DNA from: Octopus vulgaris
Lineage: Eukaryota
Direction of reading: 5' to 3'
Assembly: GCA_951406725.2 (NCBI GenBank)
Contig: OX597840.1
Span: 1,550,001 to 1,614,000 of the forward strand
Length of the DNA stretch: 64,000 nucleotides
A program made the position numbers and the translations under genes. The notes beneath the pieces are model-generated. The model was not told where the DNA came from. It saw only the letters and a program-made list of their open reading frames with translations, and made no database searches. Shown in pieces: positions 1,538 through 62,247 of this stretch; within the stretch, counting starts at the first letter, position 1; the number at the start of each line of letters is the position of its first letter.

Positions 1538-1882
1538 TAAATGAAAGATGGAGTTGAACGACGAATTAACAAAATTCCTTTAATCTCGACATATGTTTCG
1601 AAGGAATAAGGGGTGCAAGGCGGCATAATGCACCCTTATTCCTTCGAAATTAGGAATATGCAGCCTTCGAAACATATGTCGAAAATAAAGGAATTTTGTT
1701 AATTCGTCGTTCAACTCCATTCTTTCATTTATTTGTATTAAAAAAACACACAAATTTCCACACGAAAGCACGTGATCTCTGCCCTTGGCATGTAGCTTCA
1801 AGTGTGTTTTTCTGACGTGAATTTGCTACCCAGGTATCGGTTAACCGAATTATCCATAATAAGATAATTCATTCAACTACTT
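1538..1882 (+). mobile_element. Penelope-like pLTR-derived element (HHR family 1): forward copy preceded by an inverted partial copy, between (TA)n tracts
   Basis: 1538-1617 is the reverse complement of parts of 1629-1730; contains the HHR 3' half CTTCGAAACATATGTC; homologous to 31200-31338 and 43155-43369. Confidence 0.75.
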
Positions 1883-1950
1883 TATATATATATATATATA
1901 TATATATATATATATATATATATATATATATATATATATATATATATATG

Positions 1951-2088
1951 AAAAAACAAGTCAAAATAGAAAATGCTAAAATAATTTTATACAGAACATT
2001 GTCCTTTATAAAATTATTTTAGCATTTTCCTATTTTGACTTGTTTTTGCATATATATCAACTCGTGTGTTCCTTTTCACCCTTATACA
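1951..2088. repeat. ~40-bp-arm hairpin plus short tail inserted in (TA)n
   Basis: AAAAACAAGTCAAAATAGAAAATGCTAAAATAATTTTATA (1952-1991) is inverted at 2007-2047 with a 15-nt spacer. Confidence 0.85.
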
Positions 2089-2701
2089 TACATATATATA
2101 TATATATATATATATATATATATATATATATATATATATATATATATATATATATATATATATATATATATATATATATATATATATATTATGTATGTAT
2201 GTATGTATGTATGTATGTATGTATGTATGTATGTATATTCGACGGTCTCCTTTCAGTGTCCGCCTAACAAACCCACTCACAACACCCTGGTCAGCCCGCG
2301 GCCATAGAAGAGAACACTTGCAAAGGTGCCACACAGTGGGACTGAACGCAGAGAAATGTGATTGAGAAGCAAGCTTCTTGCCATAAAACCAATCCCACTT
2401 GAACCATTCTGGGAAACGTTTCAGTATTACGAGAATTTAATGGAGGTGCGTCGTTCAATAAGGAATAGCATGGCGTTTACCTTTAGTGCTGGATAAGATC
2501 TGAAGCCAAACAAATTTGATGAGGGAAGATGAGACAAGTGGACGGAAATATCCGATTACAGATGGCAACAACCCAAAAGTGACAGTTACATATAAAGTAG
2601 CAGAAGCAGAAGCCGTAGCAGCAGCAAGTATTTCAGTAGTAGCAGTAGAAACAGCAGGTGTAGGGTTTGGATATTATATATTGTTGTGTTTATATATATA
2701 T

Positions 2702-3132
2702 TCTTTCTATTCTTTTATTCTTTTAGTCGTTTCAGTCACTTGACTGCGGACATGCTGGAGCACCGCCTTTAGTCGAGCAAATCGACGCCGGGACTTATTA
2801 TTTGTAAGCCCAGTACTTTTTCTATCGGTCTCTTTTGCCGAACCGCTAAGTGACGGGGACGTAAACACACCAGCATCGGTTGTCAAGCAATGCTAGGGGG
2901 ACAAACACAGACACACAAACATACACGCACCCCCCACACACATATATATATATATATATACATATATACGACGGGCTTCTTTCAGTTTCCGTCTAACAAA
3001 TCCACTCACAAGGTTTTGGTCGGCCCGAGGCTATAGTAGAAGACACTTGCCCAAACTGCCACGCAGTGGGACTGAACCCAGAACCATGTGGTTGATAAGC
3101 AAGCTACTTACCACACAGTCACTCCTGTGCCT
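2702..3132 (-). mobile_element. SINE family A, near full length
   Basis: Head, internal microsatellite and tail (GGCGGTGCTCCAGCATG...GACTGAAAC) on minus strand. Confidence 0.9.
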
Positions 3133-4028
3133 ATATATATATATATATATTATATATTATATATGGTTATCTTTATATATATATATTTATACTATATACT
3201 TTTTGGCTCTTTCACATAATAACGTACATCTAAAGGCCAAAGACAGGTATTTGTTATCGAATGACTACTTGAATCATAGTGAGCCGATGACACTAACCAC
3301 TAAGCCAAGCAAAGTTTTTCTCCTGACTCAGACATTGAATAATATATAAGAACTCTGTTTTAGTTTCTGAAGATTAAAGATGTTATAAAAGAAAGAACAT
3401 GTGATAGTTCTTAAGTTGTTGATACGATCACTATTGGTACGTCTTGCACGCAACTAGTTTACGGCTAAATTTGATATTGAGAAAAATTGTTGACAGAAGA
3501 AAATCGTAGAAAACTTTAAAGTGATTTTTCAATATAGTGAACCTCGAAAGTAGATATTTTTTTCAAACATGTCAGGATTTTAACATTCGCAAATTCGTAA
3601 AGCTCTGAGATTTTTGTTGATCAAAGTGTTACCTTTTTGTAAATGAATTAGTTTGAATTGCGAGGAATTAGGAGTTTCTTTTGGTATCACATTTTATATG
3701 TGATTCGCCACTGATGGGCACCCTTAGTAGATGCCTTCTGCTATATTGTCGGAATGACCAAAGATTTGTGAATGGATTTGGTTGAAAGAAATTGGAGGCA
3801 CCTAGTTGAATATAGATAAAAGCTATTCACCGATTATATCTCGATTTTTGTCTGTATGCATATACATGCAGACACATAAACCCTCACACACGTATATGTA
3901 TATATATATATATATATATATATATATATATATATATATATATATATATATATATATATATATATGTACATATATATATATAGAAAATAGTAAATATATA
4001 TATATATATATGTGTATATGTAAAAGGT

Positions 4029-4430
4029 TGTGAATTAGAAAGAAATTGTAAAAAGTACATTGTATATAAGGCAACAATTATAACACAGGAACCCTCTACA
4101 TATATCTACACAGAATGCACCAATCGGGAATTTCGAACCACCACGAATCTACGTTTAGAGACTATAGGAATGCGAAGAGTACCGGACTCTCAAAATAAAA
4201 GTTTAAAAAGAAAGAATTTGGCACCGCAAAAGAAAGAATATTAATTTCTCAACTATGCGGTTAATTCTACTTTCTACCCCTTGTTACAGAATTAACAATA
4301 AAATTTGCAGATTATGTCTAGAAGAAAACTGTAATATAATGAGAATAAATACATGACTTGTTAATACGAGGGATGAAGCTTTTACTCGGGTAAACACATG
4401 ACCAAATTCCTATTCATTAATCTAAAATAG
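4029..4430 (+). pseudogene. Penelope-like retroelement GIY-YIG endonuclease remnant
   Basis: Broken frames give [20 protein letters not shown]...YIYTECTNREF / HHESTFRDYRNAKSTGLSK / CRLCLEE / NTRDE / KHMTKFLF, matching the PLE endonuclease pattern IVY...YIG...H...F...STxLSK...CxLCLxEK...LNxRxE...HxxKF. Confidence 0.75.
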
Positions 4431-60379: not shown

Positions 60380-60486
60380 TCTGTGTAAGTCTTTATGTAT
60401 GTATGCATGCATGTATGTATATATATATATATATATATATGTATATATATATATATATATATATATATATATATATATATATATAT

Positions 60487-60901
60487 CCTCTTTTACGCTT
60501 TTACTTGTTTCAGTCATATGACTGCGAGTATGCTTGGGCACCGTCTTTAGTCGAAGGAGTCGACCCCGAGACTTATTCCTTGTAAGCCTAGTACTTATTA
60601 TATCGATCTCTTTTTACCGAACCGCTAAGTTACGGGGACGTAAACACACCAGCATCGGTTGTCAGGTGATGGTGAGGGGACAAACACAGACACACAAACA
60701 CACATATATATATATATATATATATATACATACATATGCGACTGGCTTTTTTCATTTTCCGTCCATCAAATCCACTCACAAGGTTTTGGTCGGCCCGGGT
60801 CTATAGTAGAAGACACTTGCCCAAGGTGCCACGCAGTGGGACTGAACTGGAACCATGTTGTTTATAAGCAAGCTACTTACCACAGAACTACTCCTGCGCC
60901 T
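60487..60901 (-). mobile_element. SINE family A
   Basis: Homology to other copies. Confidence 0.85.
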
Positions 60902-61410
60902 AGTGATTTTTAATTTAGGTATCCCCATCCAATACTTCCAAAAGGAAATATTCAATTCCATATGGTACGGTCTACATGTGGACTTGATCTGTAATGCGCC
61001 ATACAACGAAAACAAGTAAGAGAACTAAAATTATTCAAAATTATCCGTGACAGATGATACCATAAAAAACGCAGAACAAATCGCAGTCGATAAGCGACGG
61101 AGCATTTTTTACAGTATGTAAACAGACTCAGACATATTCCATTTGTAGTAACTCAAAACCTAAGCAAAAAATATCTTGCATTTGGTCAAATGTAACTTAT
61201 TATTGTACAGGAGACGGTAAATTCATGGAAAATAATAACACTGTCCTTTTTTGCCACTTAAATGTGGCTAACCCCTAAGGGTGGATGCTACTGTAGCTTG
61301 TAGCCCCAGGAGGAGACCTCCTTCAGCTGGCTATTAACACACTTTCTGTTCCCTATCAGTATTTGCTATTTGCAAATGTAAGCCATCCTTCTCATCTTCA
61401 ACCTATGATA

Positions 61411-61454
61411 CACACGGACTCGAGTTTCTGGGTAATGACCGTCACCAGCGTATG
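61411..61454 (-). ncRNA. Type I hammerhead, core mutated (CUGGUGA)
   Basis: Minus: CATACG-CTGGTGA-CGGT CATT ACCCA-GAAA-CTCGAG-TC-CGTGTG. Confidence 0.65.
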
Positions 61455-61763
61455 ACAATCATGGCTGTCAATAAAAAGTAGGCTTTCCTCTGCAAATATA
61501 CATCCTTTTTCCAGTGACGTAAAGTCACTGATATCAAAAAAGTGTAAACAAGCAAGAATAAACCTCTGAGCGAGGTATAAACAGTAGCTGCAACACATCG
61601 TGAAGTATATTTGCCATTTAAATATGGCAAATCCCTAAGGGTGGATGCTACTGTAGCTTGTAGCCCCAGGAGGACACCTCCTCCAGATGGCTATAGACAC
61701 ACTTTCTGTGCCCTATCAGTATTTGCAAAGGGAAGCCATCCTTCCCGTCTTCAACCTGTGATA

Positions 61764-61808
61764 CACACGGACTCGAGTTTCTGAGTATTGACCCGTCATC
61801 AGCGTGTG
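61764..61808 (-). ncRNA. Type I hammerhead ribozyme (family 2), intact core
   Basis: Minus: CACACG-CTGATGA-CGGGT CAAT ACTCA-GAAA-CTCGAG-TC-CGTGTG; 6-bp helix I, palindromic helix III, GUC site. Confidence 0.85.
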
Positions 61809-62247
61809 ACAATCACAAGTTGTCGATGAAAAATAGGTTCCCTTTGCAAATATATATCTTTTTTCCCGTGACGAAAATTCACTAATATCGAAAAAGTGTA
61901 AACAAGTAATAATAAATAGCCAGCTGGGAGAGATGTCCTCCTGGAGCTACAAGCTACAGTAGCTTCCGCCCTTAGGGGTTAGCCACATTTAAGTGGCAAA
62001 TATACTTCACGATGTGTTGCAGCTACTGTTTATATCTCGTTCAGAGATTTATTATTGCTTAATAATACTGTCACAAAGTAAAAAGTGCCGATCGCAATCT
62101 TTTAATCTTAAAGATTTTTATTAAGAGTGTAATTCACACAGGATGTAGACATGATGCTGGTAGCAAAATTTGAAGAAATTGAGTGCAATGCAAGACATCA
62201 ACGTTGACTGAAGAGAGTAAAATTAAAATATACAAAATAATATAATT

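Follow-up and report, generated by a model that had tools for sequence, protein, structure and literature searches.

A 64,000-nucleotide stretch of the Octopus vulgaris genome (contig OX597840.1 of assembly GCA_951406725.2, positions 1,550,001 to 1,614,000; hereafter the window) holds hammerhead ribozyme elements set in (TA)n microsatellites, several of them as head-to-head pairs of inverted arms whose 5' ends meet in the middle and whose 3' ends point outwards. The two arms of a pair typically end at two different fixed sites of the element, here called A and B. Among 64 such pairs sampled from the genome, 54 had both ends at a site, and 51 of these combined one A with one B, the other three having two ends of the same type (binomial p 1.5e-12 vs 0.5). 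The explanation we favour, with a probability of roughly 0.6, is a Penelope-like element (PLE) protein that cleaves a TA-rich target on both strands and starts copying a single RNA from each cut end, at A on one side and at B on the other. An initial annotation of the window had proposed the head-to-head form as a regular integration product primed from both ends of the target, which the present counts support except for one family (F6, below); it did not include the rule of different fixed end sites for the two arms.

The elements belong to seven families, labelled F1 to F7 in this analysis, which also defined sites A and B; positions are counted from the predicted cleavage site. At least six families had been estimated before, and BLAST found no similarity among the seven apart from their TA tails and one 24-nt patch. 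Together they span about 4.7 kb of the window, itself rich in microsatellites (167 tandem-repeat rows). Searches were run against the octopus's own 2.8-Gb genome (227 contigs), and the regions taken were the best-scoring matches of each family. First-look candidates, which are not copy numbers, amounted to 1,282 for F1, 2,387 for F2, 922 for F3, 424 for F4, 1,667 for F5, 2,476 for F6 and 528 for F7. The best 40 per family were scored and the best 30 loci per family analysed, with 29 for F3 (one duplicate dropped) and 16 wider regions around the best matches for F5. The sequence at 22523 was rejected as a ribozyme family: all six of its candidates were scored, and the five other matches cover downstream sequence only, none of them the core. 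Further hammerhead families with other palindromic helix III sequences occur at L321:6583-7604, L314, L248 and L256, one of them as a tandem plus an inverted copy, and the genome's family count therefore exceeds seven.

A (TA)4 run stands at the 3' end of 196 of the 268 arms in the genome sample, against a background of 10.8%, and is weakest in F2 (19/39) and F4 (19/40). The suspected enrichment in (TA)n is thus borne out, as is the earlier picture of a varied population of ribozyme retroelements directed to it, and most sampled elements do end in such a tract, but the ends of the window pair at 61251 lie outside (TA)n. Sites A and B are 45-149 nt apart in six families and 161 nt apart in an intact coding PLE with an 899-aa open frame. 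The 64 pairs comprised 13 of F1, 8 of F2, 15 of F3, 11 of F4, 14 of F5 and 3 of F7; the F7 query forced a B arm, and without F7 the rule stands at 48/51. At 16 loci of the 899-aa PLE all 11 pairs were A+B, and the five single arms all end at B. Hidden inverted B arms of 8-20 nt were found beside A-ended single arms at five loci (L006, L017, L053, L058 and L070) and once in the window. The four head-to-head loci previously described in the window (1538, 26227, 47778 and 61251) all exist, but a whole-ribozyme inverted pair is present only at 26227, because both arms at 1538 and 47778 lack the 5' half of the core and the right arm at 61251 has no ribozyme; two more head-to-head loci, 33954-34393 and 38436-38888, had been overlooked (Table 1). 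The suggestion that this recurrent architecture is undescribed does not hold, since both the head-to-head arrangement and the preference for (TA)n have been published for PLEs (PMC8557442, PMC3846280), as are inverted 5'-truncated copies, the one-ended tail and hammerheads with a palindromic helix III. Neither the A+B rule nor inverted arrays of retrozymes turned up in the main texts of the literature searched, and we saw no quantified one-A-one-B rule in that of PMC8557442; its supplements may list related Hydra families.

By sequence criteria F2, F3, F4 and F5 are non-LTR retrozymes (LTR, long terminal repeat), forming closed head-to-tail tandem units of 354, 497, 466 and 493 nt, respectively, with one type I hammerhead each. 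Their units have a GC content of 0.31-0.44, the circular sense strand folds with z scores of -3.9 to -8.5 vs 25 shuffles, and 50 of 159 arms exceed 1.15 units. A tblastn search with five PLE protein pieces matched no F2-F5 unit, just neighbouring PLE relics, and a general scan for open reading frames (ORFs) was not run; for these four families the earlier description as ORF-less stands. F5 is very young to judge by identity, the best 40 of its 1,667 candidates being 100% identical to the window copy, and its arms reach 6.5 units. Target-site duplications were sought as non-TA repeats of at least 8 nt at both ends, which occurred in 5 of 30 F2 blocks vs 1.1% across loci and in 0-1 blocks in F3-F5; this signal is obscured because the insertions sit in (TA)n. 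F1 (1538, 31202 and 43154 in the window) is recognisable as the 3' untranslated region (UTR) or pseudo-LTR (pLTR) of a coding PLE, and the label ORF-less therefore fails for it. Copies of it with 87-91% identity stand after 804- and 833-aa frames and again on the 5' side of those frames; at L082 the endonuclease runs directly into F1, and at L311 the order is inverted pLTR, direct pLTR, 804-aa frame, pLTR. Around -135 to -162 relative to the cleavage site there is a cluster of F1 5' ends (L061-L090), which may mark a transcript start or a stall site. F6 is a 215-bp monomer with a single 3' end and no adjoining pair in 30 loci, and F7 has a long 5' extension; neither showed head-to-tail closure (30 loci each) or a coding link to the PLE pieces or to a second PLE family, with a 722-aa frame.

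The places initially annotated do hold hammerhead-type cores (CUGANGA...GAAA...UH) whose helix III is self-complementary. Those at 6105, 61411, 31215 and 34169 have a defect in core or stem, and the one at 21818 lacks its GAAA half. A strict descriptor for perfect-core type I motifs found three in the window (38666+, 47620+ and 61802-), whereas 40 dinucleotide shuffles of the 50,125 unmasked bases gave a mean of 0.025 and a maximum of one. With one core mismatch allowed there were seven motifs vs 0.225 in shuffles, two of them (30664 and 38552) probably chance matches; a simple motif scan, judged too strict, returned two sites. The remaining window copies show decay, but the family references of F1-F7 carry whole motifs; those of F2 and F3 have a mismatch in the first pair of helix II, and F6 has an extra base. 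In the F1 clade (eight related sequences, three lineages) both sides change in 4 of 18 helix pairs, and 91.7% of alignment cells are paired vs 31-52% in slid controls, but the pair count itself is not above shuffles (217/500). By the shuffle counts and the family references, core and helices I-III occur above chance, in keeping with predicted type I hammerheads. Rfam hammerhead models gave no match in two focused scans with E up to 10, and a scan of the whole window showed no hammerhead among the 150 of 406 matches listed, those listed being microsatellite artefacts. Isolated folding recovered helix II in F1 and F5; the full hammerhead fold was never the lowest-energy structure of the six window motifs folded.

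PLE enzymes had been proposed as the movers from two GIY-YIG remnants in the window, at 4029 and 21297. Such mobilisation is likely, but each remnant corresponds to a different type of PLE in the genome, and no link ties either of them to a particular ribozyme family; Pfam did not recognise these endonuclease remnants. A search for reverse transcriptase (RT) brought up the young family with the 899-aa frame, which has a 3,625-bp tandem unit and at least 17 listed copies of the frame, and whose pLTR is 70% like F1 and holds a hammerhead with a palindromic helix III. At L293 and L294 (G000:C1:119512500-119530000) it forms 3.5 tandem units that are 99.9% alike, making it a candidate active source. 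Its arms were mapped on a unit without the 96-bp duplication carried by the first unit taken. The second family, with the 722-aa frame, has a 5.2-kb unit (L313-L314) and a 3' UTR that is mostly microsatellite; within this UTR one copy contains a short head-to-head insertion derived from its own ends. Read by eye, the 899-aa, F1 and 722-aa frames combine RT with a C-terminal GIY-YIG domain and have RWK-like and DKT motifs, no CCHH, and CxxC and CxH near the C-terminus; Pfam gave no relevant match for two PLE frames, and atlas look-alikes of the frames carry GIY-YIG and RVT_1. A pLTR hammerhead and insertion in (TA)n are both found in these PLE families. Weak F2-like patches near other PLE relics were considered as a partner link and rejected, as they looked like separate insertions.

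On our preferred reading a Penelope-type enzyme would cut both strands of the TA-rich target and both cut ends would prime reverse transcription, one complementary DNA (cDNA) starting at A and the other at B of the same circular or multimeric RNA. The cDNAs would grow towards each other's 5' ends and be joined by a few paired bases, with strand displacement where the arms overlap, and a single arm would result when one cDNA is very short or lost. The ribozyme would process multimeric transcripts into circles, retrozymes would borrow the PLE enzyme in trans, and a protein dimer would set the A/B asymmetry. For the more specific version, a programmed twin priming in which a PLE enzyme dimer binds one RNA at two fixed sites and simultaneously writes the two ends of a double-strand cut, we see even odds. 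The arms of one locus share non-consensus bases more often than arms across loci in F5 (64% vs 8%) and F2 (32% vs 13%); 11 of 14 F5 pairs share variants, always with the same haplotype on both sides, and the arms of the PLE locus L295 are 99.3% alike vs 92.6-93.5% to arms of other loci. The biochemical precedent is Poseidon of the green anole, whose protein, in the experiments presented, cut and extended both strands of an AT-rich target in vitro from two internal RNA start sites that match genomic ends; it is predicted to dimerise, and its insertion needs no ribozyme cleavage (Frangieh et al. 2024, PMC11167929).

Several points weigh against this reading. All samples are the top-scoring matches of each search, the F5 loci are enriched for arrays, and the windows defining A and B, 9-25 nt wide, were drawn after the data had been seen. 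Ten of the 64 pairs have an end outside them (seven are old F4), the three pairs that break the rule include 26227 of the window, and the hidden arm at L005 gives B+B. A and B share a motif in just three of seven families (p 0.025-0.05, uncorrected). The Poseidon starts reported in vitro were the same on both strands and had no homology to the target (PMC11167929), whereas the ends seen here are coupled and lie at TA-like points. Variant sharing is low in F3 (6% vs 1%) and F1 (4% vs 1%), and a single divergent locus supplies 27 of the 47 variants shared in F5, leaving 20 shared and 22 unshared without it; sharing within a locus could come instead from one dominant donor or from later gene conversion. 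Four of the six window motifs fold no better than shuffles. Finally, F2-F5 and F7 show no BLAST link to the two young PLE families examined, with the 899-aa and 722-aa frames, so that a PLE partner is deduced for them from the insertion footprint alone.

Unlikely, though the closest competitor, is that both arms start at B and the endonuclease later trims one to A, so that the asymmetry would come from cutting and not from priming. The one-sided tail is ascribed to endonuclease-mediated resolution in the main text of PMC8557442, sites A and B are AT-rich like the target, and the single arms of the intact PLE all end at B. On the other hand, both sites are reverse-transcription starts in vitro (PMC11167929), the single arms of F3 divide into seven at A and seven at B, and those of F1, F2 and F4 end mostly at A. 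An F5 arm at L128:3187-3801 ends with 10 nt of site B fused to A, which looks like initiation at B followed by a switch to A. We regard as slightly less probable again that the arms were copied from two RNA molecules, one per enzyme subunit, and joined later. The wide overlap of two near-full 3-kb arms (L295-L297), which on one monomeric RNA needs strand displacement, and the weak sharing in F3 and F1 speak for it; the common haplotypes of the F5 pairs and the single PLE subfamily of both L295 arms do not, and equal templates offer no obvious cause for one A and one B.

Inversion by fold-back self-priming on an antisense template has been proposed for rotifer Penelope elements from junction palindromes (PMC3846280). 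Palindromic junctions occur here at a few loci (L124, L013, L028 and L256), and in 4 of 8 F2 pairs the arms start within 15 nt of each other; the process may explain a minority of loci. As a general account it is improbable: it would copy the same 3' end twice, whereas here either arm can be the longer, and the scattered 5' ends differ in at least 60 of 64 pairs and in 11/11 PLE pairs, often by hundreds of bases. Starts within 3 nt of the same unit position were seen in at most four of the 64 pairs, one of them an alignment artefact, and in 0/11 PLE pairs; such asymmetric junctions contradict fold-back for most loci. We give very little credence to MITE (miniature inverted-repeat transposable element) or foldback DNA transposons, or satellites rearranged after insertion with incidental ribozymes: 26227 does look like a 775-bp palindrome in TA, but an origin at the DNA level is largely refuted, since 5' truncation varies, the tandem units are circularly permuted, the sense 3' ends are fixed, flanks are not duplicated, a coding PLE has the same footprint and the F1-clade ribozyme has four compensatory pairs.

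Junction overlaps of 1-7 nt were found in 8 of 14 F5 and 9 of 15 F3 pairs, yet in 3 of 13 F1 pairs. At several loci (L066, L074 and L124; 1603 and 47845 in the window) the helix III palindrome contains the junction or directly follows it, and this palindrome may supply the pairing that joins the arms. The arms run mostly through the cleavage site, partly by selection, and tandem units inside F5 arms share 49 non-consensus positions and differ at 37. Linear templates cut by the ribozyme were considered and set aside, as 6 of 159 arms have a 5' end no more than 15 nt from the cleavage site, vs 10.7 expected if uniform, a test biased against the idea because the queries spanned that site. A circle and an uncut multimer are alike compatible with these sequences as the template.

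In twin priming of LINE-1 (a long interspersed nuclear element, LINE), an inverted 5' piece is produced, 5' ends meet mid-element and the junction has short microhomology; the second priming site is opportunistic and the pieces scarcely overlap. The octopus pairs are alike in form, but their two sites are fixed, and the same sequence is usually copied into both arms, in some cases several times over. Non-overlapping pieces with a variable second site were not the pattern here; only 47778 has the non-overlapping form.

Metazoan non-LTR retrozymes, as described in the main texts, are likewise tandem repeats low in GC and without ORFs, each unit being a few hundred bases long and bearing one type I hammerhead, and are proposed to be mobilised by PLEs via circular RNA (Cervera and de la Pena 2020, PMC7229834; Li, Clavereau and Pollet 2026, bioRxiv 10.64898/2026.07.22.740005). 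The former proposed them as non-autonomous PLE derivatives and describes circles arising from retrozymes, and the latter also argues for PLE derivatives; the words 'inverted' and 'microsatellite' are absent from PMC7229834. The link presented there is co-occurrence and pLTR homology, whereas here it is the PLE footprint of (TA)n, head-to-head arrays and two fixed 3' ends, known from sequence alone. With the Hydra-clade PLEs set out by Craig et al. 2021 (PMC8557442), the motifs of the 899-aa, F1 and 722-aa frames fit in the C-terminal GIY-YIG without CCHH, the RWK-like, DKT, CxxC and CxH motifs and the pLTR hammerhead, and the elements share (TA)n insertion, partial tandems, an inverted 5'-truncated copy and a tail that is often one-ended. 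They differ in unit length (3.6 and 5.2 kb vs <3 kb), in the A-B distance of 150-160 nt vs a tail of 30-40 bp, and in the CxCX5C linker of that clade, which the 722-aa family and remnants L274, L278 and L279 possess but which is not recognisable in the 899-aa and F1 frames. Minimal PLE hammerheads, predicted to act as dimers in the account of Cervera and de la Pena 2014 (PMC4209133), share the palindromic helix III and, with F6 and the motif at 24599, an extra base between 9 and 10.1; in contrast, the palindromic helix III of F3 and F5 is long, with 10 nt inside the closing pair, and the usual G10.1-C11.1 pair is missing from F2 and F3. A repeat annotation of octopus counts recently active Penelope families, and its main text makes no mention of ribozymes (PMC13282606).

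Tandem and inverted insertion of PLEs and their preference for microsatellites are named an open problem in the discussion available from PMC8557442. The A+B rule turns this question, and that of the putative retrozyme mover, into a simple test, for which the genome offers reagents in an intact, very young PLE and the retrozyme F5. If true, programmed twin priming would account for both the inverted pLTR and the one-sided PLE tail in a single event; the complex would also roll circular retrozyme RNAs, as mimics of its two docking sites, into bidirectional arrays. The A+B rule further means that many short (TA)n palindromes in such genomes may be retro-insertions and not MITEs.

Table 1 Features of the window; families and retrozymes are assigned by the criteria given in the text, and positions with a sign are relative to the predicted cleavage site
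Feature	Coordinates	Strand	Remarks
F1 inverted arm	1532..1603	-	-15 to +57; site A in (TA)n; without 5' core half
F1 arm, 3' end of Hydra-like PLE	1617..1882	+	-64 to +201; site B in (TA)n
Broken GIY-YIG endonuclease remnant, Hydra-like type	4020..4427	+	
F2 retrozyme, 0.9 unit	6046..6363	+	one-mismatch core at ~6110; site B
Broken endonuclease remnant, second PLE type (zinc-finger linker, CCHH-type)	21282..21598	+	degenerate half core at 21818
Minimal hammerhead, one core mismatch	24595..24630	+	from descriptor scan
F3 retrozyme, left arm (497-nt unit)	26218..26603	-	core 26521; site B
F3 right arm	26614..27003	+	core 26723; also site B; one of three exceptions to the A+B rule
F1 single arm	31160..31343	+	core 31215; site A
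F4 retrozyme arm (466-nt unit)	33954..34317	-	core 34169; site A
F4 opposite arm	34319..34393	+	site B; pair overlooked initially
Terminal fragment, second Hydra-like PLE family (722-aa frame, 5.2-kb unit)	34442..34525	-	
F6 215-bp monomer	34537..34753	+	one-mismatch minimal hammerhead, 34618; TA at either end
F5 hidden 14-nt inverted arm	38436..38449	-	site B
F5 retrozyme arm (493-nt unit)	38449..38888	+	99.5% to family reference; intact core 38666; site A
F7 arm	41650..42068	-	decayed core near 41845; site B
Old F1 arm (78%)	43154..43367	-	-3 to +202; site B
F6 monomer	47553..47751	+	minimal hammerhead, perfect core 47620
F7 inverted arm	47776..47845	-	-22 to +44; site A
F7 arm without ribozyme	47843..47934	+	+45 to +136; stops before site B, in (TC)n(TA)n
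F2 retrozyme, 1.9 tandem units (354-nt unit)	61250..61917	-	cores 61802 (perfect) and ~61450 (one mismatch); site A
F2 opposite arm without ribozyme	61915..62060	+	site B

Other repeats lie among these features. Inverted arms of 224 bp (91.5% alike) surround a microsatellite at 43368-44072 and abut the 5' end of the old F1 arm, either as a MITE-like or as another inverted insertion. A 97-bp near-perfect hairpin between (TA)n tracts (1952-2047) and an old, 68% inverted pair (12604-12895) are each possibly a very short head-to-head end of a further family. Directly after the F1 copy in (TCTA)n, positions 31370-32680 hold a 5'-truncated LINE fragment with a zf-RVT domain (E 3e-9), to which a piece at 44844-44974 is related. 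A 140-bp repeat occurs in three near-identical copies (96-99%) at 59908-60047 and 62247-62659, beside an open-looking coding stretch at 62700-63200.

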